From Gemmatimonadales bacterium (GTDB lineage: Bacteria; Gemmatimonadota; Gemmatimonadetes; Gemmatimonadales; GWC2-71-9): a stretch of 64,000 nucleotides of DNA. This document shows positions 581-63,090 of this stretch, piece by piece (the first letter of the stretch is position 1; every line of letters begins with the position of its first letter). The translations under genes and the position numbers were made by a program. The stretch spans positions 1,471 through 65,470 of the forward strand of contig JBOHSA010000095.1 in NCBI GenBank assembly GCA_050732995.1. The letters run 5' to 3'. Under the pieces are notes generated by a model that saw only the letters and a list, made by a program, of their open reading frames with translations, did no database searches and was not told the origin of the DNA.

Positions 581-622
581 GGCGGGGAGGGAGGGGGGGG
601 AGGGGGGGGAGGGGGGGGAGGG
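581..622 (+). repeat. G-tract with three consecutive G8-A units
   Basis: Read directly: G8 at 593-600, 602-609 and 611-618, each followed by a single A. It lies in the divergent region between the Nramp and ECF sigma genes. Confidence 0.9.
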
Positions 623-711
623 TTGCACGGAAGCGGTGCGGGCCGAATCTCCCGCCCGCCCCCAGCGCTGTCAACCGGGCGGGCCTAGCCACGCCACACC
701 GCCCGTGTCAT

Positions 712-1257
712 ATGGATCAGCCGTGCCCGACACTCACTCACGACCCCGCTGAGGCCGAGATGCTGCGCCCCGACCTGGAAAAGGAGCTCGAGCGCCTGCA
801 CCCCGCCGCCTTCGGTTGGGCGCTGAGCTGCTGCGCCGGGGATCGCCGGGTGGCCGAGGACGCGCTCCAGGCGAGCTACCTCAAGATCCTGGATGGCCGG
901 GCGCGGTTCGACGGCCGCTCGAGCTTCCGGACCTGGGTGTTCGGCGTCGTGCGGCGGACGGCGGCCGAAGAGCGGCGGCGCGCCCGCATCCGATGGTGGC
1001 TGACGTGGTCCCTGGACAACCCGCCGGACCCGGAGACCGCCCTGGTGCGCTCGGAGACCACCCGGCAGCTGGCAACGGCGCTCGGCGGCCTGCCGGCCAG
1101 GCAGCGCGCGGTGCTCCACCTGGTGTTCTACCAGGAGCTCACGATCGCCGAGGCAGCCGCCGTGCTGGGTGTGGCGCTCGGCACGGCCCGGACCCACTAC
1201 GAGCGCGGCAAGGCCGCGCTGCGACGGCTGTTGGTCGCGGAGGAGGACCCGACATGA
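712..1257 (+). CDS. ECF-type RNA polymerase sigma-70 family factor
   Basis: ORF 571..1257. It has a region-2-like FRTWVFGVVRRTAAEERRR and a region-4 HTH, ARQRAVLHLVFYQELTIAEAAAVLGVALGTARTHYERGKAALRRLL. The first 47 codons of the listed ORF (MGSGRGGRGG...) only translate the G-tract, so ATG 712 (or 760) is the likelier start. Confidence 0.85.
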   Translation: MDQPCPTLTHDPAEAEMLRPDLEKELERLHPAAFGWALSCCAGDRRVAEDALQASYLKILDGRARFDGRSSFRTWVFGVVRRTAAEERRRARIRWWLTWSLDNPPDPETALVRSETTRQLATALGGLPARQRAVLHLVFYQELTIAEAAAVLGVALGTARTHYERGKAALRRLLVAEEDPT

Positions 1258-1604
1258 ACGAGGCGCGTGAGCGGGAGCTGCGCGACCGGTTCGAGCGCCT
1301 GCGGCGCGAGGAGGCCGACCGCGTGCCCGCGTTCCGCGCCGTGCTCGCGGCTGCGGAGCGGCGCCGCGCCGGGCGTCCGCCCGCGCGATTCCGCCTGGCG
1401 CTCGGCGTGATCGCCCTCGCGGCCGGGGTGGTCGCGGTCGTGGTGGGGGTGAGGCTGTTCCGGGCACCCGCCACGCCTGTGGATCTCGCCGCGACCCGCT
1501 GGCGCGGCCCCACCGACTTTCTGCTGCGGCTGCCGGGCCACGAGCTGCTGGGCACGGTCCCGCGGCTCAGCACCATGTACACCGACTGGAGGAATCCGTT
1601 ATGA
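1254..1604 (+). CDS. putative anti-sigma factor (single-pass membrane protein)
   Basis: ATGA start/stop overlap with the sigma gene. Charged N-terminus (MNEARERELRDRFERLRREEADR) followed by one TM helix (LALGVIALAAGVVAVVVGV). The call rests on position after the ECF sigma gene; no family motif was recognised. Confidence 0.5.
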   Translation: MNEARERELRDRFERLRREEADRVPAFRAVLAAAERRRAGRPPARFRLALGVIALAAGVVAVVVGVRLFRAPATPVDLAATRWRGPTDFLLRLPGHELLGTVPRLSTMYTDWRNPL

Positions 1605-2017
1605 GGCACCGTTTCGCGGGAGCGCTCGCCGTCCTCGCCGCCGTGGCGCCGACCGCCGCGGGGCAGCAGCCGGGAGAGGACCCGCTGGCCCGGCTCCTGT
1701 TTCCACCGGAGCTCGTGATGCAGCGCCGGGCCGACATCGGGCTCCAGCCGGAGCAGCGCGCCACGATTACCAAGGCGATTCAGGACTTCCAGACGAAAGT
1801 CGTGGACCTGCAATGGCGGATTCAGGAGCAGTCGCAGAAGCTCGCCGGGCTGCTCGGCAAACCGTCGGTCGATCCGGCGGCGGCGCTGGCCCAGGTGGAC
1901 GAAGTGCTGAGCGTCGAGCGCGAGATGAAGCGTGCACACATGACGCTGCTCATCCAGATCAAGAACACGCTGACGCCCGAGCAACAAGCGAAGCTGGCCG
2001 CGGCGCGCGGCCCCTGA
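1601..2017 (+). CDS. periplasmic Spy/CpxP/ZraP-like (LTXXQ motif) protein
   Basis: ATGA overlap with the upstream gene. Signal peptide MRHRFAGALAVLAAVAPTAAG, a helical body, and LTPEQQAKL, which matches the LTXXQ motif. Confidence 0.6.
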   Translation: MRHRFAGALAVLAAVAPTAAGQQPGEDPLARLLFPPELVMQRRADIGLQPEQRATITKAIQDFQTKVVDLQWRIQEQSQKLAGLLGKPSVDPAAALAQVDEVLSVEREMKRAHMTLLIQIKNTLTPEQQAKLAAARGP

Positions 2018-2081
2018 GGCGGCGCTAGTGCGCGGCGTCCCCGGCGCGTAGCATATCGGTGGCCCTTTTCCCGGGACGCTC

Positions 2082-3449
2082 GTGCCGCCCCACGCTTCTC
2101 CCGAGCTGCGTCGCTCCCTCGGCTTCCTGCGCGCCACGGCCATGGTGGTGGGCACGATCATCGGGGCGTCGATTTTCGTGCAGCCGTCGGTGGTGACCGG
2201 CGCCGTGCCCTCGGTGACGGGTGGGATGCTGGTGTGGCTCGTGGCGGGTCTGTTGACACTGTGCGGCGCCCTGATCACCGCCGAGCTGGCCGCGGCGTAC
2301 CCGGAGGCGGGCGGCGTCTACGCCTTCCTCCGCTCGGCCTACTCGCCCGCGGCGGGCTTCCTGTGGGCGTGGGCGATGTTCTGGACGATGCACTCCGGCA
2401 TCATTGCCGCGCTCGCCGTGGTGTTCGCGCGTTACGTGGGGTATTTCGCGCCGCTCGGCGACGCGGGTATCCGCGCCGTCGCGATCGTCGCCATTCTCGG
2501 TCTCTCGGCCATCAACTACTTGGGCGTCGCGCTCGGGAGCGGCCTCCAGGCCGCCGTGACCCTCGGTAAGGTCGCCGGGGTCGTCGCCATCCTCGTCGTG
2601 GGGTTCTGGCTGGGCGCGGATCTCCCCAGCCACTTCGTCACCGCATCCGCCTCGGGCGTCCGGGGCCATGGACTCAGCGGGTTCGCCACCGGCGTCGCCG
2701 CCGGCCTGTTCGCCTACGGCGGCTGGCATATGGTGACCTACACCGCCGAGGAGACGCGGGACCCGGAGCGCACGCTGCCGCGCGCTCTGCTCGTCGGCAC
2801 GCTGATCGTCACCGCGGCGTATGTGGCGCTGAACGTCGTCTACCTCTACATCCTGCCGCTCGACCGGGTGATGGCGTCCGACCGGGTCGCCGCCGAGGCC
2901 GCGGACGCGCTGCTCGGCGGGCGGGGGTTGGGGGGGGGTGGCGCGGCGATCTCGGCGCTCGTCATCGGCTCGACCTTCGGCGCGCTCTCGGGGATCGTGC
3001 TCACCGGGCCGCGCGTCTACTTCGCGCTGGCCCGGGATGGGCTGATCTTTCCTTGGGTCGGGGCGGTGCATCCGACGTTTCGGACGCCGCACCGTGCGAT
3101 CGCGCTCCAGGCCGTCTGGTCCGCCGTGCTTGTGGCGACCGGCACCTACCGGGCTCTGTTCACGCGCGTCGTCTACACCGAGTGGATCTTCTTCGCGGCG
3201 ATGGCGGTGGGCCTGCTGCTGCTGCGGCGGCGCGCCGGGTACGCGCCGGCGTATCGCCTCCGCGGCGGTCCCGTGGTCCCGTTGACGTTCGCCGTTGCCG
3301 CCGTCCTCGTCGCCGGGAGCCAGATCGTGACCGATCCTCGGAGCAGCGCGATCGGCCTCCTCCTCGTGCTCGCGGGGCTGCCCGTGTACGCCGTCTGGGT
3401 GCGGGGACGAGCGGGTGACCGCGTCCGCCAGGGAGTAAACCCAACATGA
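2082..3449 (+). CDS. APC-superfamily amino acid permease
   Basis: 455-aa ORF with about 12 hydrophobic segments. N-terminal LRATAMVVGTIIGASIFVQP is typical of amino acid/polyamine permeases. GTG start at 2082. Confidence 0.85.
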   Translation: MPPHASPELRRSLGFLRATAMVVGTIIGASIFVQPSVVTGAVPSVTGGMLVWLVAGLLTLCGALITAELAAAYPEAGGVYAFLRSAYSPAAGFLWAWAMFWTMHSGIIAALAVVFARYVGYFAPLGDAGIRAVAIVAILGLSAINYLGVALGSGLQAAVTLGKVAGVVAILVVGFWLGADLPSHFVTASASGVRGHGLSGFATGVAAGLFAYGGWHMVTYTAEETRDPERTLPRALLVGTLIVTAAYVALNVVYLYILPLDRVMASDRVAAEAADALLGGRGLGGGGAAISALVIGSTFGALSGIVLTGPRVYFALARDGLIFPWVGAVHPTFRTPHRAIALQAVWSAVLVATGTYRALFTRVVYTEWIFFAAMAVGLLLLRRRAGYAPAYRLRGGPVVPLTFAVAAVLVAGSQIVTDPRSSAIGLLLVLAGLPVYAVWVRGRAGDRVRQGVNPT

Positions 3450-7857: not shown

Positions 7858-9294
7858 CTACCCCGGCCACTGCGCCGGTGGGAGGGGGGGAAAGATGCTG
7901 GGGGGGCGGGGCGGGCGGGGGCGGCCCTTGCGGGCCTTGACTTCATACAGGGCGCGATCCGCCGTGGCCATCAGGGCTTCGGTCGTGGCGCCGTCGCGCG
8001 GGTGCCAGGCGTGGCCGACGCTGACCGCCAGCGTCGGCTTCTCCGGGTTGCCCGCCACGTGTTCCATGATGCGCTGGGCGACCTGCAGGGCCTCGGCTTC
8101 GTCCGTTTCGGGCAGGACCACGGCGAACTCGTCGCCGCCGTAACGCGCGGGGATGTCGATCGACCGGCACGAGGCCCGCAGCGCGTCGGCCACCCGGCAC
8201 AGCGCCCGGCTCCCCACGAGATGCCCATGCCGGTCGTTGATCCGTTTCAGGCCGTCCAGATCGAGCAGCAGGAGCGCGAACGGCCGGTCGGTGCGCTGGG
8301 ACCGCTGGATTTCTCCAGCAATCTCGTGGTTCAGCTGGCGGTAGTTCGCCAGGCCAGTCAGCGGGTCGGTCACGGCCAGCTGGCGCAGCTGGTCCTCGGC
8401 GCGCCGGCCTTCCGAGACGAGCGCCGCCAGCGCCAGGGTCATGATCGCCGTCACGCCCATGAACGCCTGGAGCAGGAGGAGCGACTCGTTGGGCGTTCGT
8501 CGGACGAACGGGCCGAACCCCGAGAGGGTGCCCCACACGGTGATCCCGGACAGCGCGACAATGGCCGTGACGGCGCCGCGCTGCGCGAAGCGGAATGCGG
8601 CCCACACGAACAACGGGACGCACAAGAATTCCAGCGGATAGTTCTTGACATCCGACGGAAACTGGCCGCCGAAGACCACCACCCCGACCAGGACCAGCGC
8701 GAGTCCCAGCAGCGCGGCTTCCGCTGCCCGCCCCCAGTCCCAGCGCGGCCACGGGCTCACGCTCCACGCCAGGAGAAAGGGGGCGACCACCAGATTCCCG
8801 GTGACGTCCCCGAGCCACCACGTGAACCAGATGGATCCGTAGGCCGCCCACTCGGCGAACCCACCGAGCGTGAGACTTGTGACGCCCCACGTCGGACTGA
8901 CCATCGTGCTGCCGATGGCGGCCAGCGCGATGAATCGGAAGAAGTCCGGCGCGCGCAGCAAGGCCTCGCGCCCGCCGGCGAACCGGTTGACCAGGTAGGC
9001 GCCGACGACGCCTTCGAGCGTGTTGCCGATGCCGATGGCGAGCGACGTCGCCGCGGACCCGGCCGTGGTCACATTGGCGAGGAAGGCGCCCAGGAGGATG
9101 GCGGGCCACACCCGGAGCCCGAACAGCAAGAAGGCGGTCAGCGCAATGCCCGTCGGCGGCCACACCAGAGAGGCGTTGGGGTGGAGGAAGGCGAGGCTCA
9201 GCCCGAGCTTGCCGGCCAGAAAGTACACGACAGCGAGGGCGACAAGCGTTGCCGCGTAGCGAACCGATCGGGCGCCGGTGATCCCGTGGGGCAT
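7858..9294 (-). CDS. MASE1-GGDEF diguanylate cyclase
   Basis: The N-terminal multi-TM region (YFLAGKLGLSLAFLHPNASLVWPPTGIAL) is typical of MASE1. The C-terminal domain carries DPLTGLANYR...RYGGDEFAVVLP (intact GGDEF). The Pro-rich tail RPRPPRPPSIFPPLPP is encoded by a G-tract on the opposite strand. Confidence 0.85.
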   Translation of the reverse strand: MPHGITGARSVRYAATLVALAVVYFLAGKLGLSLAFLHPNASLVWPPTGIALTAFLLFGLRVWPAILLGAFLANVTTAGSAATSLAIGIGNTLEGVVGAYLVNRFAGGREALLRAPDFFRFIALAAIGSTMVSPTWGVTSLTLGGFAEWAAYGSIWFTWWLGDVTGNLVVAPFLLAWSVSPWPRWDWGRAAEAALLGLALVLVGVVVFGGQFPSDVKNYPLEFLCVPLFVWAAFRFAQRGAVTAIVALSGITVWGTLSGFGPFVRRTPNESLLLLQAFMGVTAIMTLALAALVSEGRRAEDQLRQLAVTDPLTGLANYRQLNHEIAGEIQRSQRTDRPFALLLLDLDGLKRINDRHGHLVGSRALCRVADALRASCRSIDIPARYGGDEFAVVLPETDEAEALQVAQRIMEHVAGNPEKPTLAVSVGHAWHPRDGATTEALMATADRALYEVKARKGRPRPPRPPSIFPPLPPAQWPG

Positions 9295-13121: not shown

Positions 13122-14764
13122 CCCGTTTCCTTTCTCGATTCCTTTGGCCGCCGGCGCACGGCCTGCACCACCCGGTCGCGCCCCCCATGTTTCGCTTCGT
13201 ACAGAGCCTCATCCGCGCAGGCGAGAAGCGCCTCCGGCAGGTCGGCATGGTCGGGGAACTGCGCCACGCCGATACTCAATGTCACCTTCCCGCCCCGGAA
13301 CACTTCGTCGGCGAGGCTTGCGCGCAACCGTTCGCCGGCCTGCACCGCGGCGTCCGCGTCGGTCTCGGGCATCAGCACCACGAACTCTTCGCCCCCGAAA
13401 CGCGCCACGCAGTCGACGTCGCGCGTCGTCTCGCGAAGAATGGCCCCGACGCGCCGCAACACCTCGTCCCCCGCCAGGTGGCCGAAGCGATCGTTGTACT
13501 GCTTGAAGTAGTCGATGTCGGCGATCACCAGCGCCAAGGCATGGCGGTTGCGCCGGGCGCGCCGCACTTCGCTCTCGAGCGTCTCCATCAGCTGCCGGCG
13601 GTTGAACAGCCCCGTCAACCCGTCCGTCACCGAGAGCCGTTCCAGCCCCTGCCGTCCCTCGCGCAGCCGGGCCACCATGTCGTTGAACACCGTCGTCAAA
13701 GCCCCGATCTCGCCGCCCGTCACGACGGGGAGGTCGACGGCGAGATCGCCGGCGGCCACTTTCGCCGCTCCCTGGGTCAGGCGGACGACCGGCCGGACGA
13801 TGAGCAGGCCGAGCACGTACGCGACGAGCCCCAGGACGACGAGCAGCGCCGCGAGGATCAGGATCGTCAGGTTCCGCAGCCGCAGCACCTGGCGATAGGC
13901 CTCCGCCGTGGGCATTTCGGCCAGCACGGCCCATCCGAGGCGCGGCGCACGCGCCAGCGTGCCGACCGTCCGGATGCCCTCGAAGTTTGTGTACTCCACG
14001 GCCTCTCCGACCAGGTTGAGCAGCTCCGGAGACTCGGCCGTGCGCCCGGCGGACAGGGGTTCGACGCTGCCGGCCCCGAACCCGGTGATCAGCGCTCCCT
14101 CCCCCGTCAGGACGTGGACGTGGCCCGCCGCGCGACGCGACAAGCCTGAGAGCGCGTCCTCGACGGTGCGGAGATTGACCTGGGCCGACAGCGCTCCCAA
14201 TAGCCGCCCGCTCGGGGCTCGGATCGGCACGGCGACCGGGACGACCGGTCGCCCCAGGGCACTGTCCCGATGCACCGCGCCCACGACCGGGTGGTCCGCC
14301 CGGACCTGCGTCAGCCAGTCGGAGGGAAAGCCGGTCATCCCCTCGCCTCCTCCCCCGCCCCCCGCGCCCCCCCCGCCCCCCCCGCGCCGCCGGCCGGCGC
14401 TCGTCGCCACGACTCGCCCCGCCGGGTCGATGACCAGGAGCTCCTCGTAGTCGGCGAACCGGTGCTTGACGGAATTGAGGTAGTCCGTGAGCCGAGCGAG
14501 CGTTTGGGCCCGCCCCCCGCGCTCCAGGTTGTCGGTCACCTCGACGGACCGGGCGAATACCCGGAGATCCGAGACCCGCTCCTTGAGCCAGATATCGAGC
14601 TCGCGGGCCGCCTGAGAGCTCACGCCGCGCAGCTGCTCGGTGAGTCGTTCCGTCAGCGCGCGCTTGTTCTCCCGGTAGGACAGCCAGGAGGTGGCCAGCG
14701 AAGGGATCAGCGCGGACAGCACGGCAAAGGCCAAGATCTTGTTGCGGATGCTGTCCAGCCGCAT
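13118..14764 (-). CDS. Cache-HAMP-GGDEF diguanylate cyclase
   Basis: ORF 13118..14848; the internal start MRLDSIRNKILAFAVLSALIPSL (14764) is typical for this architecture. It has a periplasmic sensor region, a second TM, a HAMP domain, and DGLTGLFNRR...RFGGEEFVVLMP. The sensor region carries a GGGGGGAGGGGGGEG insert encoded at 14341-14400. Confidence 0.8.
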   Translation of the reverse strand: MRLDSIRNKILAFAVLSALIPSLATSWLSYRENKRALTERLTEQLRGVSSQAARELDIWLKERVSDLRVFARSVEVTDNLERGGRAQTLARLTDYLNSVKHRFADYEELLVIDPAGRVVATSAGRRRGGGGGGAGGGGGGEGMTGFPSDWLTQVRADHPVVGAVHRDSALGRPVVPVAVPIRAPSGRLLGALSAQVNLRTVEDALSGLSRRAAGHVHVLTGEGALITGFGAGSVEPLSAGRTAESPELLNLVGEAVEYTNFEGIRTVGTLARAPRLGWAVLAEMPTAEAYRQVLRLRNLTILILAALLVVLGLVAYVLGLLIVRPVVRLTQGAAKVAAGDLAVDLPVVTGGEIGALTTVFNDMVARLREGRQGLERLSVTDGLTGLFNRRQLMETLESEVRRARRNRHALALVIADIDYFKQYNDRFGHLAGDEVLRRVGAILRETTRDVDCVARFGGEEFVVLMPETDADAAVQAGERLRASLADEVFRGGKVTLSIGVAQFPDHADLPEALLACADEALYEAKHGGRDRVVQAVRRRPKESRKETG

Positions 14765-41371: not shown

Positions 41372-41374
41372 GCC

Positions 41375-43835: not shown

Positions 43836-46469
43836 ATGACGCGCTGGCCGATGTCCGCGGTGCTCCTCGCCGCGCTGGTCGTGCCAGGGTCGGCCGGCGG
43901 GCAGACCGCGCCGGCGCCACCGCCCCGCAAGCAGGCCCGCGCGCTGCGCCTCGACCGGGAAACGGTCCGGCTGGACGGCCGGCTGGACGAGGCCGCGTGG
44001 CGCCGGGCCGCGTGGATCTCGGATTTCGTCCAGAAAGAGCCGAACGAGGGCGCCGCCCCCACCGAGCGCACCGAGGTGGCCTTCTTCTACGACGCCGACG
44101 CGCTGTACGTGGGCGTGCGGGCCTATGCGGATGATCCGGCCAAGATCCAGGCCCCGCTGTCCCGGCGCGACAACACCGCCCAGGCGGAGCACGTCTGGAT
44201 CTCTCTCGACACGTACCTCGACCATCGCACGGCGTACTCGTTCGGCGTGACCGCGTCGGGCGTGCGGATGGACTTCTACCACGCCACCGACCGCGAGCAC
44301 AACGTAGACGGCCGGTTCGATCCGGTGTGGGAGGCCCGGGCGGCGATCGACTCGCTCGGCTGGACGGCCGAGCTGCGCATCCCGTTCTCCCAGCTCCGCT
44401 ACACCGCGAAGGACGCCCAGGTCTGGGGCCTTAACATCGATCGCTGGATTCCATCGCGGCGCGAGGACGTGTTCTGGATCCCCGTGCCCAAGAACGAAAC
44501 CGGCTGGGCCTCGCGGATGGGCGAGCTGCACGGGATCGAGCGGATCGCCCCCTCCCGCCGGCTGGAGCTGCTCCCCTACGCGGCGAGTAACGCGACGCTC
44601 ACCGGCGACCGCGATCCCGCGGACCCGTTCGACGACGGCCGGAACCTCGAGGCCCGTGCCGGCGCCGACATGAAGATGGGCGTCGGCCCCAACCTGACGC
44701 TCGATGCGACGGTGAACCCGGATTTCGGCCAGGTCGAGGCCGACCCCGCGATCGTCAACCTGTCGGCCTTCGAAGTCTTCTTCGACGAGCGCCGGCCGTT
44801 CTTCACGGAGGGGAGCCAGCTCTTCCCCTCCCGCTTTTTCTACACGCGCCGGGTGGGGGCCCGGCCGCGCGGCGCGCCGGTCGCGGACGACGACGACTAC
44901 GTGGACTATCCGGACGCCAGCACCATCCTCGGGGCCGCCAAGCTCACGGGGCGGCTGCGCTCGGGCACGTCGGTCGGCGTTCTCGCCGCGCTCACGGCCC
45001 GGGAGCGCGCCCGCGCCTACGACCCCACGACCGCGCGCGTCACGGAAACTGTGGTCGCGCCGGTCAGCGGGTTCGGCGCCCTGCGGACCCGACAGGAGAT
45101 CGGCGCCGACGCGTCGGTGGGCGGGACGCTCACCATGGTCCGCCGCGATCTCGCGGACGGCGACCCGCTCGCCGGGATCTACGCCCGCGAGGCGTACGGA
45201 GGCCGGCTGGACTGGAACCTGCGGTTCGGCCGGGACGCCTACGTGCTGGACGGGGACATCGGGTTTTCGCACGTCCGGGGCGACTCGAGCGTGTTGCTGC
45301 ACATTCAGGAATCGCCGGTCCATTACTTCCAGCGGCCGGATGCGGGCCACGTCGCGGTGGATTCGTCCCGGACCGCCCTCAGCGGCTATGTCGCGAGTCT
45401 CGCGTTCTCCAAGATCAGCGCTCGGCACTGGCTGTACGAGGTCAGCGTGGGCCGGGAATCACCCGGCTTCGAGCCTAACGATGCCGGCCGGCTCTCGAAC
45501 GCCGACGGGCAGAACGCGTTCGCCCAACTGCGGTACCGGGAGACGCAACCGGGCCAGACGTTCCACACCTACGAGCTGAGTTTCGAGACGGGTGGCGAGT
45601 GGAATTTCGGCAACGACCGGCAGTTCTACACCACGCGCTGGGACGCCAAGCTGACCTGGAAGAACTTCTGGGTGACGAACCTCACCTTCTGGATCGACCA
45701 CCCCTCGCAGAACCAAGCGCAGACCCGCGGCGGGCCCTCCATGGGCACGCCCCGCAGCCGGGTCGTGATCGCGCGACTGGGGAGTCGGCTCGGCGCGCGG
45801 ACGGCGTGGAACGGCCGGGGGTACTACGGGTGGGACGAGCTGGGCGGGGAGATCTACCGGCTGAGCGGCGGCCTGTCGGTGCGCCCCAGCACGCGCTGGC
45901 AGGTGTCGGTGGATCCGAACTACCTGCGCGTGATCGACCCGCGCCAGTACGTGGCCACGTTCGACTCGGGACCGGCGGCGACGTACGGCCGGCGTTACGT
46001 GTTCGCGTTCGTCGACCAGAGCGAGTTCCGGATCCCGATCCGGGCCAATTACACCCTCACCCCCGACCTGACGCTCGAGCTCTTCGCGGAGCCGTTCGCC
46101 GCGAGCGGCCGCTTCTACGGGTTCGGCGAGCTCGCGGCGCCCCGAACCACCCGGCTGCGCCGCTACGGCACCGATGGCACCACGATCGCGCGCGACCCCG
46201 CCGGGGACTACCTCGTGACCGACAACGGCGGCGCGGACACGCTCGCCATCGCCAACCCGGACTTCAACGTCCTGTCCTTCCGCAGCAACCTCGTGCTGCG
46301 CTGGGAGTGGCGCCCGGGGAGCACGCTGTTCCTCGTGTGGCAGCAAAATCGCCAGCACGACGACGCGCGCGGCGCGCACGTGGGGCCGGCCGATCTGATG
46401 GATTCGCTGCGGGCGACGGGGGACAACTTTCTGGCGATCAAAGCCAGCTACTGGATCCCGGTGCGGTAG
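43836..46469 (+). CDS. DUF5916/CBM9-like domain outer-membrane protein
   Basis: Signal peptide MTRWPMSAVLLAALVVPGSAGGQ. LDGRLDEAAWRRAAWISDFVQKEPNEGAAPTERTEVAFFYDADALYVG (CBM9-like), then VNPDFGQVEADPAIVNLSAFEVFFDERRPFFTEG and a long beta-rich C-terminus. This is the pattern I recall for DUF5916 proteins. Confidence 0.75.
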   Translation: MTRWPMSAVLLAALVVPGSAGGQTAPAPPPRKQARALRLDRETVRLDGRLDEAAWRRAAWISDFVQKEPNEGAAPTERTEVAFFYDADALYVGVRAYADDPAKIQAPLSRRDNTAQAEHVWISLDTYLDHRTAYSFGVTASGVRMDFYHATDREHNVDGRFDPVWEARAAIDSLGWTAELRIPFSQLRYTAKDAQVWGLNIDRWIPSRREDVFWIPVPKNETGWASRMGELHGIERIAPSRRLELLPYAASNATLTGDRDPADPFDDGRNLEARAGADMKMGVGPNLTLDATVNPDFGQVEADPAIVNLSAFEVFFDERRPFFTEGSQLFPSRFFYTRRVGARPRGAPVADDDDYVDYPDASTILGAAKLTGRLRSGTSVGVLAALTARERARAYDPTTARVTETVVAPVSGFGALRTRQEIGADASVGGTLTMVRRDLADGDPLAGIYAREAYGGRLDWNLRFGRDAYVLDGDIGFSHVRGDSSVLLHIQESPVHYFQRPDAGHVAVDSSRTALSGYVASLAFSKISARHWLYEVSVGRESPGFEPNDAGRLSNADGQNAFAQLRYRETQPGQTFHTYELSFETGGEWNFGNDRQFYTTRWDAKLTWKNFWVTNLTFWIDHPSQNQAQTRGGPSMGTPRSRVVIARLGSRLGARTAWNGRGYYGWDELGGEIYRLSGGLSVRPSTRWQVSVDPNYLRVIDPRQYVATFDSGPAATYGRRYVFAFVDQSEFRIPIRANYTLTPDLTLELFAEPFAASGRFYGFGELAAPRTTRLRRYGTDGTTIARDPAGDYLVTDNGGADTLAIANPDFNVLSFRSNLVLRWEWRPGSTLFLVWQQNRQHDDARGAHVGPADLMDSLRATGDNFLAIKASYWIPVR

Positions 46470-46494
46470 GGGGGGGGGGGAGGGGGGGGGGAGG
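46469..46494 (+). repeat. G12-A-G10-A-GG tract between convergent genes
   Basis: Read directly. It begins at the last base of the TAG stop of the DUF5916 gene and ends 22 bp before the stop of the convergent ada-like gene. Confidence 0.9.
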
Positions 46495-48587: not shown

Positions 48588-49798
48588 CAGCGGGCCTGGC
48601 GGCGAATGGCCGCGAGCAGCGCGCTCAGGACCGCCACGCCCGCCAGGAGTACGCCCGTCACCCCGGCACTCAGGGGGGCGATCGGTCCCAGGGGCAGCCG
48701 CGGGGCGAAGCGCCGCTGCCAGCGCGCGGTCCATTCTCCCACGGGCGCCCGCAGCGCCGCCGCCAATGAGGGCTCGACAGCCAGCGGGGAATTCCAGAAC
48801 CGCAGGAATCGGTCGTGACCGACCTCGCGGACGACGTCCGCCAGGAATCGGTCCTCCTCCAGCAGGCGCTCTGCCCGCCACCACGAGGGCGTGATCGTGA
48901 CGATCCGGGGCAGGGAGTCCTCGACCCGATCCCCGGAGCCGGCCAGGACGGCGTCCTCGCAGCTGGTGGCCCTTCCCCCCAAGCAGCCGACCGCCGAGAC
49001 GGGCATTCCGCTGATACCGCTCCACCACCACCGTCCCGTCGCCGGATCGTGCACGAACGCGGAATGCCCTCCTACCTCGGCGGCCACGCTCGGACTCCAG
49101 TCGGGGACTACAGCGAGGGTGTAGTGCCGGGCTGCCAGCCAGCGCCGCGCCGGTCTCCCGGGCGTTCCGAACCCGGCATAGAACGCACATGGCCCGAGGG
49201 CGAGCTTGAGCCATTCGGCGAGCTGTTCGGTCCGTCTCGCGGGGACGATGGTCTGCAGCCACCGCTCCCATCGGTCCGCCGGGACGTACGCCACGCACGC
49301 CGCGCGATCGGTCGAATCAGGCAGCAGGTAGGACCGCGCGCGAACTATCTGCGGGTGGTTCGAGGCTGCGGGGGAGGGGGGGGGGGGCAGAGCCCCACCG
49401 GTTTCCAGGACGACGCCGACGGCGACTTTGGACACGCCGAGGTCGAGCGAGCGCCAAACGGCGTCGAGCGTCTGTCGCACTGTCCGCTCGAACTCTGCGG
49501 CGACATTCCCCTGTGTCCCCCCGGCGAACAACAACGCCGGGCCCTCCACGTCCGCGTGTCGGCGGCGCTCGAATTCGGGCTCCAGGCGGTTCCGGAACTG
49601 GGCGAGTCGGAGCGCCAGATCCATCTCGCGCCATTGCTCGGCGAGCGCTTGGGCCTGGAGGCGGGCGGCGGTCGGCGGCGCCGCCCGCGGCGTCCGGGAG
49701 CGGGGCGGGGATGCGCCTCGAGGTGGCAGGTAGGCCGCCGCGATCAGGACGCACACGGCCGCGGCACCGGCTCCCCACCAGGTCAGCTGACGCGCCAT
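48587..49798 (-). CDS. hypothetical bitopic membrane protein (paralogue of 49783-50904)
   Basis: ORF 48587..50503 trimmed to ATG 49798 (MARQLTWWGAGAAAVCVLIAAAYL, N-terminal TM). C-terminal TM LSAGVTGVLLAGVAVLSALLAAI. Its C-terminal module is shared with the upstream gene product. Confidence 0.5.
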   Translation of the reverse strand: MARQLTWWGAGAAAVCVLIAAAYLPPRGASPPRSRTPRAAPPTAARLQAQALAEQWREMDLALRLAQFRNRLEPEFERRRHADVEGPALLFAGGTQGNVAAEFERTVRQTLDAVWRSLDLGVSKVAVGVVLETGGALPPPPSPAASNHPQIVRARSYLLPDSTDRAACVAYVPADRWERWLQTIVPARRTEQLAEWLKLALGPCAFYAGFGTPGRPARRWLAARHYTLAVVPDWSPSVAAEVGGHSAFVHDPATGRWWWSGISGMPVSAVGCLGGRATSCEDAVLAGSGDRVEDSLPRIVTITPSWWRAERLLEEDRFLADVVREVGHDRFLRFWNSPLAVEPSLAAALRAPVGEWTARWQRRFAPRLPLGPIAPLSAGVTGVLLAGVAVLSALLAAIRRQAR

Positions 49799-51562: not shown

Positions 51563-52477
51563 CTAACGCGGAGGGTCGCGAAACGCCCGGAGCAGCTCCA
51601 CGAACCCCTCCTCCAGGTCGAGGTCGATCACGTCACGCAGGTCGGCGCCAATGGTCGCGAAGTACGCCGCCATCGCCGGCTCCCAATCGCGCACCGCCCA
51701 ACGCTCCGCCGACCCCTCCCCCCCCTCCCCTCCGTTGACCGGATGACGTCCGAGCACTACGAATGGCGGCTCAGGAACACGCGCGGGCGCCCCGTGCACG
51801 TGGAGCCGTTTCATGCCGTGCTTGAAGCGGTCCATCGGGACCTCCAGGACCAGGCGGCCGTCGTCCATGACTCCGATCCAGTTGCAGAAGCGCTCCAGCT
51901 CGTGGATCAGATGACTCGAAATGAAGATCGTGGCCCGGCGCTCCGAGACGTAGTCGAGGAGGGCGGACAGGATATCGCGCCGAACCACGGGATCGAGTCC
52001 GTCGGTCGGCTCGTCCAGCACCAGCAGCTCGGGCTGCTGCGCGAGCGCCAGCAGCACCATCAGCTTGCCCTTCTGACCCTTCGAGAGGCGCCCGAACAGC
52101 TTCCCGTCGTCGAGCCGGAACTCGCGCACCAGCTGTTCGGCGCGCTGCCCGTCCCAGGCCGGGTAGAACGCCGCCTGGTAAGCGACGGTCTCGCGCACGG
52201 TCAACGTCGGGTCGAGATGCGGTTGCTCCGGCACGTATCCGACGTGCGTCAGCACACGCGCGGCGGCGCCGGGCATCTCGCTCCCGAGCACCTGGATGTG
52301 GCCGGCACGAGGGCGGAGCAGCCCCAGGACCAGCCGGATCGTCGTCGTCTTGCCGCATCCGTTGGGGCCGAGAAAGCCGTAGATCGCCCCGGCGGGGACG
52401 TGCAGGGCCAAATCCTCGATGGCGAACGTCCGGCCGGCGTGGTACGACAGGCGCTGGGTTTCGATGGCGTTGGTCAC
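51563..52477 (-). CDS. ABC transporter ATP-binding protein
   Basis: Walker A GPNGCGKTT, signature LSKGQKGK, Walker B LLVLDEPTDGLD, and H-loop SSHLIHE. The C-terminal region carries an NGGEGGEGS insert. Confidence 0.9.
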   Translation of the reverse strand: MTNAIETQRLSYHAGRTFAIEDLALHVPAGAIYGFLGPNGCGKTTTIRLVLGLLRPRAGHIQVLGSEMPGAAARVLTHVGYVPEQPHLDPTLTVRETVAYQAAFYPAWDGQRAEQLVREFRLDDGKLFGRLSKGQKGKLMVLLALAQQPELLVLDEPTDGLDPVVRRDILSALLDYVSERRATIFISSHLIHELERFCNWIGVMDDGRLVLEVPMDRFKHGMKRLHVHGAPARVPEPPFVVLGRHPVNGGEGGEGSAERWAVRDWEPAMAAYFATIGADLRDVIDLDLEEGFVELLRAFRDPPR

Positions 52478-54004: not shown

Positions 54005-54454
54005 ATGACCTCCTACGTGCGAGCGCGGTACGACTCCGGGGAAACCGATCCCCAAAGGGGGGGGGGAGGGCCAGCCGTATCGGAGCGCTCCCGCGGCGTC
54101 GCGCTCGCGCTCGGCTTCATCGGCGGCGTGTTCGGTCTGCACCGCTTCTACACGGGCAAGATCAAGAGCGGTCTCTTGATGATCTGCACGTTCGGCGGGC
54201 TCGGTTTGTGGTGGCTGTACGACATGATCCTGCTCGCCACGGGTGAGTTTCGGGACGCGGACGATCTCCCCTTGCGAAACTGGAACGTCCAGGAGCCGCG
54301 CGGGATGGCCCGCGCGGCCGACCGGCGCACGGACGAGCTGGAAGAGCGCTTGGACGCGCTGCAGGGGGAGGTCGCGGAGATGCAGGAGCGGTTGGACTTC
54401 ACGGAACGCATGCTGGCCCAGCAGCGTGACCGCGATCGTCTGTCGAAGGGGTAG
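54005..54454 (+). CDS. TM2-domain membrane protein with C-terminal coiled coil
   Basis: ORF 53912..54454 trimmed to ATG 54005. GVALALGFIGGVFGLHRFYTGKIKSGLLMICTFGGLGLWWLYDMILL is the TM2 signature. The C-terminal helix is LEERLDALQGEVAEMQERLDFTERMLAQQRDRD. Confidence 0.8.
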   Translation: MTSYVRARYDSGETDPQRGGGGPAVSERSRGVALALGFIGGVFGLHRFYTGKIKSGLLMICTFGGLGLWWLYDMILLATGEFRDADDLPLRNWNVQEPRGMARAADRRTDELEERLDALQGEVAEMQERLDFTERMLAQQRDRDRLSKG

Positions 54455-58941: not shown

Positions 58942-60501
58942 GTGGCCATGACCCTCTCGCGTGTTCTCCGCCTCGCCGCCGTCGGCTGGTTCGCGTCCCC
59001 CCCCCTGGCATCGGCGCTCGCCGCCCAGCAGGTCGTCCAGGAGCGCGTGGACCTCTCGGTGGTCCAGCGCATCCGGGACGAGGGAATGAACCGGTCGCAG
59101 GTCCCCGAGCTGGCGGGCTACCTGACCGATGTCATCGGGCCGCGGCTCACCGGCTCGAGCGCCATGCGCCGGGCCAACGACTGGACGGCGGAACAGTTCC
59201 GCGGCTGGGGGCTCGCGAACGTGGTCGTGGAGCCCTGGGGGCAGTTCGGGCGCGGTTGGGAGCGCGTCTCGTTCAGCGGGCGGATCCTCGAGCCGTTCGT
59301 CTGGCCGCTGCAAGGCTCGCCGCTCGCCTGGAGCGGCAGCACGCGCGGCACGGTCGTCGGGCCGGTGGTCTTCGTGGAGCTCCGGGACACCGCGGATCTG
59401 GCCCGCTACCGCGGGAAACTCCGGGGTGCGTTCGTGATGCGCGACACCATCGTCGCGGTGGCGCCGGAGTTCGACCCGGCGCCGCTCCGGACGCCGCTCG
59501 ATCGGCTGCTGGACACGACGCGGCAGCAAGCGCCACCGCCCACGCCGCCGACGCCGGAGCAGCAGGCGCGGCAACAGGCCCAGGCGGCGTTCAATCGCGC
59601 GGCGTACGCCTTCCTTCGGGCCGAGCGTGCCGCCGGCGTGCTCACCTACTCGAGTCGGCAGTACGCGATCATCCGGCCGGGCGCGGGTCCGTTCTCGACG
59701 GCCGTGCGGTATGATACGATCCCCGACCCGCTGCCCGCCGTCATGCTGTCGCAGGAGCAGTACTTCCAGATCGTCCGGAACCTGAAGCGCGGCACGCCGG
59801 TCCGCCTCGAGCTCAACGCGCAGAACCGGTGGCTGACCCAGGACCGGCAGGCCTACAACACGTTGGCCGAGATTCCCGGCGCGGATCTCAAGGACCAGGT
59901 CGTCATGCTCGGCGCCCATCTCGACAGCTGGTTCGGGGGGACCGGCGCCACGGACAACGGGGCGGGCTCGGTCGTCATGATGGAGGCGATCCGGATCCTC
60001 AGGACCCTGGGCCTCCAGCCACGCCGCACGATCCGCATCGCGCTGTGGTCCGGCGAGGAGCAGGGCTTGCGCGGCTCGCGCGCCTGGGTCGAGAACCACA
60101 AGGCCGAGCTCGACAAGATCTCGGCCTACGTGAACGTGGACAACGGCACGGGACGGATCCGGGGCATCTGGAATCAGTCCAACGAGGCAGTCCTCCCGGT
60201 GTTCGAGCAGATCCTCTGGCCGTTCCGCGACCTCGGCGTGGTCGCGGTCCGGCGCGGCAACACCGGCGGCACCGATCATCTGGCGTTCGACGCCGCCGGC
60301 GTCCCGGGCTTCAACTTCATCCAGGATCCGATCGAGTACGGGACGCGGACGCATCACACCGACGCGGACACGTTCGAGCGGCTCTTGATCGACGACCTGA
60401 AGCAGGCGGCGACCGTGGTCGCCTACACGGTGTATCACCTGGCGATGCGGGACGAGATGATGCCGCGGAAGCCGGCGCCGGCCGCAACCGGAGGGCACTG
60501 A
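58942..60501 (+). CDS. M28-family metallopeptidase (aminopeptidase), secreted
   Basis: Signal peptide. VVMLGAHLDSWFGGTGATDNGAGSVVMMEAIRIL and LWSGEEQGLRGSRAWV (M28 zinc ligand motifs). GGTDHLAFDAAGVPGF. Confidence 0.88.
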   Translation: MAMTLSRVLRLAAVGWFASPPLASALAAQQVVQERVDLSVVQRIRDEGMNRSQVPELAGYLTDVIGPRLTGSSAMRRANDWTAEQFRGWGLANVVVEPWGQFGRGWERVSFSGRILEPFVWPLQGSPLAWSGSTRGTVVGPVVFVELRDTADLARYRGKLRGAFVMRDTIVAVAPEFDPAPLRTPLDRLLDTTRQQAPPPTPPTPEQQARQQAQAAFNRAAYAFLRAERAAGVLTYSSRQYAIIRPGAGPFSTAVRYDTIPDPLPAVMLSQEQYFQIVRNLKRGTPVRLELNAQNRWLTQDRQAYNTLAEIPGADLKDQVVMLGAHLDSWFGGTGATDNGAGSVVMMEAIRILRTLGLQPRRTIRIALWSGEEQGLRGSRAWVENHKAELDKISAYVNVDNGTGRIRGIWNQSNEAVLPVFEQILWPFRDLGVVAVRRGNTGGTDHLAFDAAGVPGFNFIQDPIEYGTRTHHTDADTFERLLIDDLKQAATVVAYTVYHLAMRDEMMPRKPAPAATGGH

Positions 60502-60931: not shown

Positions 60932-61365
60932 GCCGGCGGGGGGGAGGGGGGAGCGGGGAATGGGGAGTGGGGCTCGCGGTCGGACTCCTTGCGCTGGCGG
61001 CGTGCCGGATGGAGCGGGCGGCCACGGTGCGGATCGTGGAGCCGGCGGAAGGTGCGACGATCGTCGGGCCCAGCGTCCGGGTCGTGCTGCAAGTGACGGG
61101 AATGGAGCTCGCCCCCGCGTCGGAGCAACGCCCGGGGACGGTCCACCACCACCTGTTCCTCGACACCGAGCTCACCCCGCCGGACGATACGATCCCCGCG
61201 GGCGTGACCGGCATCATCCACCTCGGCCGCGCCCAGACGGAGTTCAGCTTCGACAGCGTGCCGCCGGGCCCCCACCGCGTGATCGCCTACCTCGCCGACC
61301 CCTGGCACGTGCCGGTCAAGCCGGTCGCGGTGGATACGGTACGGTTTGTGGTGACGAGACCCTGA
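60928..61365 (+). CDS. DUF4399-like periplasmic lipoprotein
   Basis: ATGA overlap with the osmC stop. Lipobox LALAAC. GTVHHHLFLDTEL...IIHLGRAQTEFSFDSVPPGPHRVIAYLADPWH matches my recollection of DUF4399. The N-terminal RRGGGGSGEWG is encoded by a G-tract. Confidence 0.65.
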   Translation: MSRRGGGGSGEWGVGLAVGLLALAACRMERAATVRIVEPAEGATIVGPSVRVVLQVTGMELAPASEQRPGTVHHHLFLDTELTPPDDTIPAGVTGIIHLGRAQTEFSFDSVPPGPHRVIAYLADPWHVPVKPVAVDTVRFVVTRP

Positions 61366-61366
61366 C

Positions 61367-61470
61367 GGGGAGGACGGGGAAGGACGGGGGGAAGACGGGG
61401 GGGGGACCTCCCCCGTCCTCCCCCGCCTTCCCCCGCCTTCCCCCGTCCTCTCCCGTCCTCTCCCGTCTCC
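61367..61470 (+). repeat. purine/pyrimidine-asymmetric decamer array forming a long imperfect inverted repeat
   Basis: Left arm: GGGGAGGAC GGGGAAGGAC GGGGGGAAGAC GGGGGGGGG (61367-61405). Right arm: six in-phase decamers CCCCGTCCTC CCCCGCCTTC CCCCGCCTTC CCCCGTCCTC TCCCGTCCTC TCCCGTCTCC (61411-61470). CCCCGTCCTC is the reverse complement of GAGGACGGGG. Intergenic, between the DUF4399 and DUF971 genes. Confidence 0.9.
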
Positions 61471-61480
61471 CATCCGCCCC

Positions 61481-61816
61481 ATGGACATTCCCATTCCCAA
61501 GCTGATTGGCCGCCAGGCGGCACGCGGCGACTTTCTGATCCGGTGGGATGAGGGCCACGAAGGCGTCTACCCCGCCCGGGTGTTGCGATTGGCGTGCCCG
61601 TGCGCCGAGTGCCGCGAAGAGATGACCGGACGCCGGCTGCTCGATGCGCGTCGGGTGCCGGACGACATCGATGGCGTGCGGGTGGAGCTGGTCGGCCGGT
61701 ACGGTATCCGCATCGACTGGAGCGACGGGCATCACACGGGGATCTACACCTACGAGATGTTGTACGAGATGTGTCCCTGTGCGAGTTGCTCAGCGGCGAA
61801 GCGACCGAGGGGCTAA
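61481..61816 (+). CDS. DUF971-family protein (gamma-butyrobetaine hydroxylase N-terminal-like zinc domain)
   Basis: 111 aa. FLIRWDEGHEGVYPARVLRLACPCAECREE...GIRIDWSDGHHTGIYTYEMLYEMCPC is the typical DUF971 pattern. Confidence 0.75.
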   Translation: MDIPIPKLIGRQAARGDFLIRWDEGHEGVYPARVLRLACPCAECREEMTGRRLLDARRVPDDIDGVRVELVGRYGIRIDWSDGHHTGIYTYEMLYEMCPCASCSAAKRPRG

Positions 61817-63090
61817 GTCCCTTCACCCCTGGGCCCCCCAGCCCTTCCCACCCGCTGCAGCAACGCCAGCCCCAAGACGAACAGCCCCCCCACGGCCAAC
61901 ACCGCCGCCCGCTGGTTGCCGCCGGTGGCGCGCGACACGGTGCCGAAGATCAGGGGTCCCAGCACGGCCGAGGACTTCCCGACCACCGCGTAGAATCCGA
62001 ACATCTCCGCTTCCTTGCCGTGCGGGATCAGGGACGCCATTAGCGCGCGGCTCGCGGCCTGTACCGTGCCGAGCTGTGTGCCCGCGACCACGGCCACGGC
62101 GTAGAACACGGTCTGGCTCCGGATCAGCGCGGCCGCGATCGCGACGCCCACCCAGACGGCGAGGCTCAGCGTGATCACCCGCTTGGGGCCCCAGCGGTCG
62201 GTCGGCCGGGCGAGGACGAGCGCGCCGACCAACGCGGAGACCTGGACCACGATGAACATGAGAATCAGCTGGGCCGTGCTGAAGCCGAGGGTCTTGGCGG
62301 CGTAGAGGCTCGCGAAATAGATCGTGGTCTCGACCCCGTCGATGTACACGAAATAGGCCGCGAGGAACCGGCGCAGCTCGCCCACGCCCAGCACGTCGCC
62401 CCAGATGCGCCGGAAGTGCGTGACGCCGTCGATCGCCGCGCGCCGCGCCGGCACGCCGGTCGGCGCGTCGGCGGGCATGACCCGGAAGATCGGCACGGAG
62501 AAGACCACGAGGAACAGCGCGACCATCAGCCAGGTCAGCTCGAACCGGCCCGCGTTGACGAGCGGCAGCGCCAGCAACAGCCCGACGGTGGACCCGGCGT
62601 AGCCGATGCCGTACCCGAGTCCCGAGACCTCTCCCCGGCGCTCGGGCGGCGCCACATCGGGGAGATAGGCGTTGTAGTAGACGATCCCGCCCTCGAACCC
62701 GACGTTGGCCAGCACGGCCAATACGAAACCCCAGAGGATCATGCCCGGCTGGATCGTGCTGAACAAGGTGACACTGAGGACGCAGAGATAGGTGAACGCG
62801 AACAGCATCCGCTTGCGGACGCCCGCCCGATCAGCCACCGCCCCCAGCACGGGCGAGGTGAGCGCCACGATGATCATCGACGCGGACACGACCCAGCCCC
62901 ACACCTGGTCGCCGCGCCCCGTTTCGTTCCCGACGATGTTCTGCGCGAAGTAGACGCTGAAGATCGTCGCGATGATCACCGCCGCGTAGGCGGAGTTCGC
63001 GAAATCGTAGAGACACCAGGCCAGGACTCGGCGGCGATCCAGAGCAGGACGGGGGAGGATGGGGGAGGACGGGGACGGGGCGTCGGGCAC
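61813..63090 (-). CDS. MFS transporter (UMF1/Atg22-like family)
   Basis: 425 aa, about 12 TM. The N-terminal RRVLAWCLYDFANSAYAAVIIATIFSVYF is characteristic of UMF1-type MFS. The Pro/Ser-rich N-terminus is encoded by GGGGGAGGAY decamers on the opposite strand. Confidence 0.82.
   Translation of the reverse strand: MPDAPSPSSPILPRPALDRRRVLAWCLYDFANSAYAAVIIATIFSVYFAQNIVGNETGRGDQVWGWVVSASMIIVALTSPVLGAVADRAGVRKRMLFAFTYLCVLSVTLFSTIQPGMILWGFVLAVLANVGFEGGIVYYNAYLPDVAPPERRGEVSGLGYGIGYAGSTVGLLLALPLVNAGRFELTWLMVALFLVVFSVPIFRVMPADAPTGVPARRAAIDGVTHFRRIWGDVLGVGELRRFLAAYFVYIDGVETTIYFASLYAAKTLGFSTAQLILMFIVVQVSALVGALVLARPTDRWGPKRVITLSLAVWVGVAIAAALIRSQTVFYAVAVVAGTQLGTVQAASRALMASLIPHGKEAEMFGFYAVVGKSSAVLGPLIFGTVSRATGGNQRAAVLAVGGLFVLGLALLQRVGRAGGPRGEGT

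Follow-up and report, generated by a model that had tools for sequence, protein, structure and literature searches.

Lineage-specific G-run tandem repeats in a high-G+C Gemmatimonadales genome segment and their probable origin by slippage

The 64-kb stretch of DNA analysed here (the window; positions 1,471 to 65,470 of contig JBOHSA010000095.1, assembly GCA_050732995.1) belongs to a Gemmatimonadales bacterium and has a base composition of 71.0% G+C (C 35.2%; G 35.8%, where about 35% had been estimated in an initial annotation). A gene map based on codon usage, combined with Pfam annotation, places about 60 ordinary genes in it, among them sensors, transporters, peptidases, TonB-dependent receptor, PD40 and DUF5916-type proteins, NtrX and a BlaI/BlaR1 pair. 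The subject of this report is a set of tracts, within genes as well as between them, in which long runs of G (C on the other strand) follow one another and are often spaced by single A residues. We propose that they are probably lineage-specific, hypermutable simple sequence repeats (SSRs) of G-run type, made by slippage and filtered by selection. Scans of the window for tRNAs and Rfam families returned no matches, so the tracts do not belong to any known RNA.

All 17 G-run loci listed in the initial annotation are present where it placed them, and its count of eight homopolymer runs of at least 10 nt is exact: G10 at 20420, C11 at 33451, C10 at 41706, C10 at 42534, G12 at 46469, G10 at 46482, G12 at 49376 and G10 at 54057. 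Runs of G or C of at least 8 nt number 19 and those of at least 6 nt number 68. Intergenic DNA makes up about 4.0 kb (6.3%) of the window and holds three of the eight longest runs, at two loci, which is a modest to marginal enrichment (P ~0.01 by run, 0.07 by locus).

At most loci, Tandem Repeats Finder resolves tandem arrays, with periods of 1, 7, 9, 10 and 11. The period is 9 at 580-622, 14352-14385, 42507-42549 and 51713-51730, 11 at 46471-46494, 7 at 60939-60972, and 10 at 61364-61471 and 63046-63074. Read on the G-rich strand, runs of at least 5 nt are interrupted by A in 9 of 14 cases (by C in three and by T in two), compared with 26% A in shorter runs (P = 0.003). The tracts are therefore purine-only on one strand and pyrimidine-only on the other, and neither kind of strand leaves room for TAA, TAG or TGA, whichever of the six frames is used. 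Translation yields Gly/Glu/Arg or Pro/Ser/Leu, which explains the peptides seen at the tracts and confirms the earlier reading of Gly runs or Pro/Ser runs according to strand. On the plus strand 10 loci are G-rich and 8 are C-rich, with sense and antisense, coding and non-coding positions mixed. Across the loci we found no conserved flanks, terminal repeats or target-site duplications, and the units vary from locus to locus. A scan of 44-64 kb for promoter and terminator consensus sequences found nothing associated with the tracts.

Of 12 intragenic runs of at least 7 nt, 11 leave the reading frame intact, and the exception is in the BlaR1-like gene. The clearest case of an insertion is NtrX, in which the G6-A-G10 tract at 20411..20431 (+) reads GGG GGA GGG GGG GGG and adds five residues to the AAA+ domain, in a loop after the Walker A region. 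This insertion is missing from 16 of 17 orthologues, and the 17th has an unrelated insertion at the same spot. The receiver domain of the same protein carries a second insertion, GGPGGP, coded by a G/C-rich 18-nt segment at 19919..19936 (+) and missing from all 17 aligned orthologues. A PPPPPG stretch at 21046-21071, G/C-rich and of low complexity, lies in the variable linker before the helix-turn-helix region of NtrX. Neither in 16 of the 17 NtrX orthologues nor in any of the syntenic relatives examined is a tract conserved at the orthologous position.

Other tracts inside genes are placed in a similar way. In the amino-acid permease, G5-TT-G9 at 2921..2940 (+) encodes GGRGLGGGGA in frame, with the same frame on either side, and in the flavin monooxygenase (FMO), C9-T-C3-T-CC-ACT-C7 at 35186..35215 (-) encodes GGRGGVEGGGGRS, also in frame; both Gly-tract loops are a few residues longer than those of homologues in the PDB. 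In an ABC ATPase, whose conserved core reaches to about residue 221, the period-9 tract C4-T-C8-T-C4 at 51711..51732 (-) encodes NGGEGGEGS past that core, in the C-terminal extension. The earlier view of the tracts as lineage-specific additions in loops, linkers and termini is thus borne out by NtrX, by the FMO and permease loops and by the ABC ATPase tail. A Cache-HAMP-GGDEF sensor holds a period-9 array at 14339..14388 (-), C5-G-C6-GCG-C8-G-C8 in plus-strand letters, which encodes GGGGGGAGGGGGGEG in frame within the dCache_1 domain. The tract G7...G7-C-G4-C-G3-C-G5 at 7878..7927 (+) covers the C-terminal tail of a MASE1-GGDEF protein encoded on the minus strand, past the end of the GGDEF domain, and also lies upstream of a BNR/sortilin gene. 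At 49370..49387 (+), G5-A-G12 encodes PPPP...S in the minus-strand gene 48587-49819, with the frame kept.

The BlaR1-like gene contains two tracts, C10-TT-C6-T-C3 at 41704..41727 (+), in frame in a Pro-rich loop, and a period-9 array of CTCCCCCCG (4.8 copies, including C10) at 42504..42549 (+), in a Pro-rich linker. Based on third-position G+C, the coding frame switches between 42455 and 42694, at or just after the second array. The downstream open reading frame (ORF) aligns with the C-terminal half of proteins of 800-1000 residues. In one homologue (P0123, 838 aa), residues 2-381 match the upstream frame and residues 359-838 the downstream frame, and the two alignments overlap in the Pro-rich linker coded by the C-rich array. 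The frame switch therefore sits at the C10-containing array, as noted initially. It could be a real mutation (a pseudogene), a switch, or a homopolymer sequencing error.

Seven of the 18 loci lie at 5' ends or in leaders (Nramp, BNR/sortilin, TonB-receptor leader, TM2, M28 signal peptide, DUF4399 start region and MFS), and the mid-gene loci include NtrX, FMO, the Cache sensor and the ABC ATPase. A period-9 array of GGGAGGGGG (4.8 copies, containing G8-A three times) at 580..622 (+) separates two divergently transcribed genes, Nramp (-) and ECF sigma (+). It lies at the extreme 5' end or in the leader of Nramp; the Pfam match begins at residue 46 of the ORF that spans the tract, and no coding signal was found beyond 622. 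The C11 run at 33451..33461 (-), G11 on the transcribed sense strand, is intergenic, past the stop of the PD40 gene and some 80 nt ahead of the start codon of the TonB-dependent receptor at 33373, which is preceded by a Shine-Dalgarno motif. In the TM2-domain gene, G10-A-G3 at 54057..54070 (+) falls at about residue 18, ahead of the TM2 domain, and the coding signal is weak upstream of the tract. A C9 run at 58997..59005 (+) falls at about residue 19 of the M28 peptidase, in the signal-peptide region. The period-7 array G7-A-G6-AGC-G4-AAT-G4-AGT-G4 at 60938..60975 (+), between OsmC and DUF4399, overlaps the ribosome-binding and start region of DUF4399. Three tandem 10-nt copies (GGGGGAGGAY) at 63046..63084 (+) lie at the 5' end or in the leader of an MFS/Atg22-like gene on the minus strand.

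Among the intergenic tracts, only the one at 61364..61471 (+), after DUF4399, folds better than shuffled sequences by Watson-Crick folding. The hairpin is roughly 100 nt long, its arms are built from tandem 10-nt units (GGGGAGGAC... and ...GTCCTCCCC), with a folding energy of -84.9 kcal/mol (z -4.3), and its two arms carry the unit in opposite orientation. The unit, GGGGGAGGAC, is common only to this hairpin and to 63046-63074; the two sites are 1.6 kb apart and flank two genes. Neither this 10-nt unit nor the 14-nt unit pattern occurs in any other Gemmatimonadales locus compared. A generic role of the intergenic tracts as terminator stems was considered and rejected, since all but 61364-61471 and 30757-30789 are unstructured in Watson-Crick folds. 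The latter (+), which follows gene 30359-30751, has the anatomy of a terminator (GGGGGAG...CTCCCCC followed by T5) yet folds no better than shuffles. Its 3' arm is a C9 run at 30776-30784, a related locus additional to those listed initially.

The intergenic tract G12-A-G10-A-GG at 46469..46494 (+) starts at the last base of the DUF5916 stop codon and lies between convergent genes. Its G12AG10 portion is exactly at the DUF5916/Ada junction, which is a break in synteny: the Ada gene is missing from L001, a Gemmatimonadaceae locus and the closest relative with synteny around DUF5916. Two blocks of the window are extra relative to L001 (3901-4006 and 6565-6755): BlaI/BlaR1 (40982-43815) and the Ada methyltransferase (46516-47631). 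At its orthologous convergent junction (6566-6760), L001 carries a hairpin of about 170 nt (-112.5 kcal/mol, z = -8.7) with arms that repeat a unit of about 10 nt (GACGCACAGA-like) imperfectly in tandem, and this hairpin resembles the one in the window at 61364-61471. The L001 hairpin may represent a class of bidirectional terminator found in this family.

Long runs and paired runs are in clear excess over chance. The eight runs of at least 10 nt compare with 2.3 in an order-0 simulation, in agreement with the roughly two previously expected from composition alone, with 0.26-0.64 for Markov orders 1-3 and with 2.2 for order 5. All nulls together give about 0.3-2.6, and eight runs were reached in 0 of 100 simulations at any order. 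For units of the form G5+-N-G5+ the simulations predict 0.6-2.5, and none of 100 reaches the 11 observed; matches to (G5+N)2+G3+ number four against 0.02-0.09. The clustering of G-run-A-G-run units pointed out in the initial annotation is thus beyond composition, and it also exceeds dinucleotide and codon-permutation nulls. For runs of at least 6 nt, composition alone (order 0) predicts 165 and Markov orders 1-5 predict 52-83, whereas 68 are present. G runs are thus still generally avoided in this genome, and it is the heavy tail that is abnormal.

Codon-aware nulls were run on the called genes; the frameshifted BlaR1-like gene, with its two runs of at least 10 nt, is uncalled and hence outside this comparison. 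When codons were permuted within genes, 0.68 runs of at least 10 nt were expected and 3 observed (6 of 200 shuffles reach 3), and G5+NG5+ units were expected 1.2 times and observed 8 times (0 of 200). Synonymous shuffling that preserves the protein gave 2.2 runs of at least 10 nt against the 3 observed (78 of 200 reach 3) and 4.2 G5+NG5+ units against 8 (7 of 200). A codon-aware null that reproduced frequency and clustering had been named in the initial annotation as evidence against its reading of the tracts. The excess survives codon permutation, whereas the protein-preserving shuffle gives back much of the coding signal, which means that within genes most of the signal is the Gly and Pro runs themselves. 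By the G-quadruplex (G4) predictors, the window contains 35 Quadparser motifs against 9-13 under Markov orders 1-5, and 28, 17 and 4 G4Hunter regions at thresholds of at least 2.0, 2.5 and 3.0, respectively. The tracts thus have the sequence of G4 candidates (at least four G runs of at least 3 nt with short loops).

Tract richness is a trait of this genome's lineage, not of high G+C. Four Gemmatimonadales loci syntenic around the histidine kinase-NtrX genes (L013, L014, L139 and L140; 62 kb in total, 67-71% G+C) contain 11 runs of at least 6 nt and none of at least 8 nt, against 68 and 19 in the 64 kb of the window (P = 5e-11 and 4e-6). The density of runs of at least 6 nt is therefore about six times that of relatives with equal G+C. 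Runs of at least 8 nt were also missing from L001 and from 160 kb of high-G+C Acidobacteriota and related DNA. At a G4Hunter score of at least 2.5, the 17 regions of the window compare with 0-1 per locus in the 14 comparison loci scored. Codon and amino-acid usage differ in the same direction between the window and L013/L014: GGG makes up 31% of Gly codons (21-26% in L013/L014), CCC makes up 39% of Pro codons (29-30%), and Gly content is 10.1% (7.6-8.3%). Based on indels relative to L014, L001 and L013, window-specific and relative-specific insertions are alike in overall base composition, so the G tracts form a distinct minority class and do not reflect a general insertion bias. The nearest NtrX relatives of the window organism share about 70-76% protein identity with it.

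We scanned metagenome contigs for exact matches to G8AG8AG8 and found at least 120 loci. Most of the matches listed are artefacts, consisting of tens to hundreds of G with stray A or T, often at contig ends. These are concentrated in samples Ga0179591 and Ga0179593. Among L017-L134, and in those two samples above all, many public contigs carry near-pure poly-G over hundreds of bases, internally as well as terminally; such assembled sequencing artefacts swamp motif searches for G-rich repeats. Thus, the motif by itself proves nothing. About a dozen of the matches listed are clean, being bounded tracts within normal high-G+C sequence, and several of these fall in frame within long ORFs whose coding signal is consistent to either side of the tract. 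The clean (G8A)2G8 tracts (L018, L020, L104, L110, L111, L115, L137 and L138) come disproportionately from the WN* and Ga01373xx series; the Ga01373xx records are presumably soil metagenomes. This suggests that a tract-rich Gemmatimonadales population is abundant in the sources of both series. In L104, a G10 run in frame lies just ahead of a dihydropteroate-synthase-like motif.

One clean match, L115 (WNGE01000571.1), encodes a TPR lipoprotein whose homologues are named Gemmatimonadales, some of them 77-99% identical, and whose Gly run is 11, 9, 4 or 2 residues long across the protein alignment. At the DNA level the locus forms an allelic series, drawn from independent assemblies of different samples with flanks 94-99.8% identical: GGCGGA-CCC in L137 and L138, GGCGG-GGGGGG-ACCC (G8) in L136, GGCGGT-G11-A-G9-CCC in L135 and GGCGGT-G8-A-G8-A-G9-CCC in L115. 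The last two contigs are 99.8% identical over about 5.3 kb, and the sole indel in the two aligned segments is one GGGGGA unit within the tract, by which G11AG9 differs from G8AG8AG9. Three more G/C tracts within the same 5 kb vary between strains, in both directions; one of them is an expansion of (CGCGCCCCCC)n in L137. All six strain differences in tract length are multiples of 3 (chance 0.0014), and most indels between L115 and L137 fall in G/C-rich tracts. L137 and L138, which were found by protein identity and not by the motif, have 9-11 runs of at least 6 nt per 10 kb, as the window does. The description of the tracts as slippage-prone in the initial annotation is supported by this allelic series of the same motif in a related Gemmatimonadales population.

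The two segments over which L115 and L135 align are separated by an 88-nt deletion in L115. At about 8599 of its reverse complement, L115 is without 88 nt of pyrD (DHO_dh) that four sister strains (L135-L138) carry. This gap is either a frameshifting deletion or an assembly error, and is unrelated to the G tracts.

Some further features of the window stand apart from the G tracts. A 9-nt tandem array of CGCCGCCCG (5.3 copies) at 28670-28719 lies in frame in the metallo-beta-lactamase-fold gene 27867-29354; it is G+C-rich but not of the G-run type. Within a PD40-repeat gene, a 132-nt tandem duplication at 33725-33974 (1.9 copies, 77% identity) represents the beta-propeller repeats of the protein itself and is unrelated to the G tracts. 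Three short ORFs that match only parts of families are possible gene remnants: 57221-57841 (-), with N- and C-terminal pieces of a GMC oxidoreductase within 206 aa; 55850-56188 (+), matching positions 44-121 of 375 of a Na/H exchanger family; and 47656-47895 (-), matching positions 116-157 of 165 of a DinB-like family and conserved in L001.

These observations can be joined in a model of slippage and selection. A seed such as GGN-GGN or CCN-CCN, or a G run in non-coding DNA, would be lengthened by replication slippage, and units of 6-11 nt containing an occasional A would then be duplicated in tandem to give arrays such as (G8A)n. The A interruptions could arise by G-to-A transition followed by duplication of the unit, which is consistent with the tracts. 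Any expansion by a multiple of 3 would be tolerated wherever a flexible segment is tolerated, that is, in surface loops, inter-domain linkers, termini and intergenic DNA. Because purine or pyrimidine purity makes such expansions stop-free, they would be tolerated in many unrelated genes and on either strand, and the removal of other expansions by selection would leave the placement that we observe. Out-of-frame changes would be rare survivors that occasionally knock out a gene, for example the BlaR1-like gene. The use of GGG/GGA (or CCC/CCT) codons, the occurrence of tracts in non-coding DNA and the growth from a short seed in the related population all point to an origin at the DNA level. Presumably the tracts of the window genome follow the same length dynamics as those of the related population. 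The difference between lineages would then probably come from altered mutation or repair, or from weaker purifying selection against (weaker avoidance of) G runs, acting genome-wide, and not from any function of the tracts.

Several points weigh against this model. The regular 9-nt spacing and the purine bias could result from selection on DNA or RNA structure. As the synonymous shuffles indicate, selection for Gly/Pro linkers and a process at the DNA level cannot be separated on this window alone. The L115 population was found via the motif and is therefore an ascertained example, which may be a near or a distant relative of the window organism within the Gemmatimonadales. The best relative of the window organism has only about 76% protein identity, and length polymorphism at the window's own tracts is extrapolated from the related population. 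Finally, the evidence consists of 64 kb of one metagenome-assembled genome (MAG).

Two functional readings were suggested initially, and we regard both as improbable. Under one of them, the tracts are G4 (or triplex) elements selected for the control of transcription, translation or replication. Many tracts are very strong candidates by sequence (35 by Quadparser, four with G4Hunter scores of at least 3.0), they remain unpaired in Watson-Crick folds, several are in leaders or between genes (33451, 46469, 60938 and 581), and promoter-linked motifs are known in G4-rich lineages such as the Deinococcales (PMC6200779, PMC6539912). Regulation of this kind is nevertheless hard to reconcile with the lack of a rule for strand (10 G-rich against 8 C-rich loci on the plus strand, sense and antisense) or for position (most tracts are in coding loops of unrelated genes), and with the absence of tracts at orthologous sites in all relatives examined. 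In the related population, tract length varies between strains that are 99.8% identical, unlike a tuned structural element. At a G4Hunter threshold of 1.2, moreover, the density of putative quadruplex sequences (PQS) in the window is ordinary (2.9 per kb, against a published mean of 2.8 per kb in Actinobacteria; PMC6539912). The other functional reading takes the tracts as contingency loci, in which reversible homopolymer frameshifts toggle sensor, transporter and surface genes as a form of bet-hedging, and it is quite unlikely on the present evidence. It would account for the BlaR1-like gene, frameshifted exactly at a C10-containing array, and for the seven tracts at or near 5' ends, several of them in genes whose products are exported or reside in the membrane (Nramp, TonB-dependent receptor leader, TM2, M28 and MFS), since N-terminal enrichment of SSRs is a known signature of phase variation (PMC3315296). 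The tolerance of termini to indels can, however, also be purely structural (PMC3315296), and a sequencing error in the homopolymer, or a pseudogene, could account for the lone frameshift. Many of the genes with tracts encode cytoplasmic proteins with housekeeping or regulatory roles (NtrX, FMO, ABC ATPase), and 11 of 12 intragenic runs are in frame. Classical switching is also at odds with the strains, as all six length differences are multiples of 3 and thus alter the length of the protein instead of turning the gene on or off.

An origin of the tracts as sequencing or assembly artefacts, that is, two-colour Illumina poly-G or homopolymer errors, is very improbable. Most of the at least 120 metagenome matches to G8AG8AG8 are plainly artefactual, the window is itself MAG sequence, and its one frameshift falls in a C10 run. 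The tracts of the window, however, are at most 46 nt long, internal, bordered by normal sequence on either side, and present as G or C on both strands, and many have structured units such as GGGGGAGGAC or CTCCCCCCG. Random artefacts would not keep the frame in 11 of 12 intragenic tracts with recognisable domains on either side, and independent assemblies, made from different samples, show equivalent tracts with related alleles at one and the same locus. It is harder still to credit a small insertion-prone repeat family, as suggested initially, of a mobile, REP- or MITE-like kind. Although the 10-nt unit is present at both 61364-61471 (the hairpin) and 63046-63074, and several arrays share a 9-nt period, only those two loci have a unit in common. 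The tracts lack shared flanks, terminal repeats and target-site duplications, the units are specific to their loci, most copies are intragenic and in frame, and the 14-nt unit pattern is in none of the compared Gemmatimonadales loci. In the related population, the alleles grow in place from a GGCGGA seed and do not look like an arriving element. A broader proposal, which we hold to be a minor possibility, is a heritable genome-wide expansion of G tracts in a soil Gemmatimonadales clade, which would continually seed polypurine arrays, some to be co-opted as evolvability devices and others to serve as G4 or roadblock elements. It might stem from a changed set of mismatch-repair proteins, polymerases or G4 helicases, or from slippage biased towards expansion. 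The devices would be length-variable sensor linkers and switches that turn genes on and off, with the BlaR1-like gene as an example and with transcriptional slippage as a possible rescue, and G12AG10 at the DUF5916/Ada convergent junction, where relatives have a long hairpin, would be an example of a G4 or roadblock element.

We therefore return to SSRs made by slippage and filtered by selection as the probable explanation. Because long G/C homopolymers mutate fast, bacteria normally eliminate them from their genomes; the classic exceptions are the switches of host-adapted pathogens. Here, a free-living, G+C-rich soil lineage has about one strong tract per 3-4 kb, and relatives of equal G+C have none. 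If this is true genome-wide, the lineage would be a natural system for studying tolerance of G runs and expansion bias (repair, helicases and polymerase). It would also imply rapid variation of protein length in sensors and transporters of uncultured soil bacteria, and would provide markers that resolve strains within Gemmatimonadales populations. A practical point for metagenomic work is that motif searches do not distinguish genuine G-rich repeats from poly-G artefacts, and context is needed to tell the two apart.

A literature search found no description of such tracts in Gemmatimonadota, which is weak evidence of novelty, and several known systems are similar in part. Low-complexity Gly- or Pro-rich linkers and expanded homopeptides are flexible parts of proteins that vary in length without loss of frame, and the tracts are like them in keeping the frame and in their placement in loops, linkers and termini. 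Ordinary poly-Gly, in the window genome as in its relatives, is encoded mostly by GGC or mixed codons, whereas the tracts use GGG/GGA or CCC/CCT and also occur in non-coding DNA. As in the G4-rich Deinococcus-Thermus group (PMC6539912, PMC6200779), the density of strong G4 motifs differs sharply by lineage and is not predictable from G+C. The motifs of Deinococcales are enriched near transcription starts on the template strand (PMC6200779, PMC6539912); such placement is not seen in the window, where only the extreme tail (G4Hunter of at least 2.5) is unusual. Poly-G and poly-C contingency loci are known from Campylobacter, Neisseria, Haemophilus and Helicobacter and from the fim promoters of Bordetella (documented in part in PMC8437040). 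The tracts share with them G/C homopolymers of 8-12 nt in 5' coding and upstream regions and one gene frameshifted at a tract, but they differ in that reversible switching is not evidenced, most are in mid-gene loops and in frame, and the set of genes appears broad.

The closest known category is that of prokaryotic SSRs acting as indel hotspots, and the tracts work like them. Prokaryotic SSRs are hotspots of indels by slipped-strand mispairing (Lin & Kussell 2012, PMC3315296). Long mono- and dinucleotide SSRs are generally selected against, with few exceptional genomes, and SSR density is U-shaped along proteins, with the repeats in termini and tolerant segments (PMC3315296). The Gemmatimonadales tracts differ from these SSRs in three respects. 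Their host is a free-living soil bacterium of 71% G+C and not a host-adapted pathogen; they are compound polypurine arrays, with G runs spaced by A and periods of 7-11, instead of pure mono- to tetranucleotide repeats; and the changes between strains of the related population are all multiples of 3. In their tandem structure, their excess over chance, their location in tolerant segments and their in-frame as well as frameshifting outcomes, they are alike.

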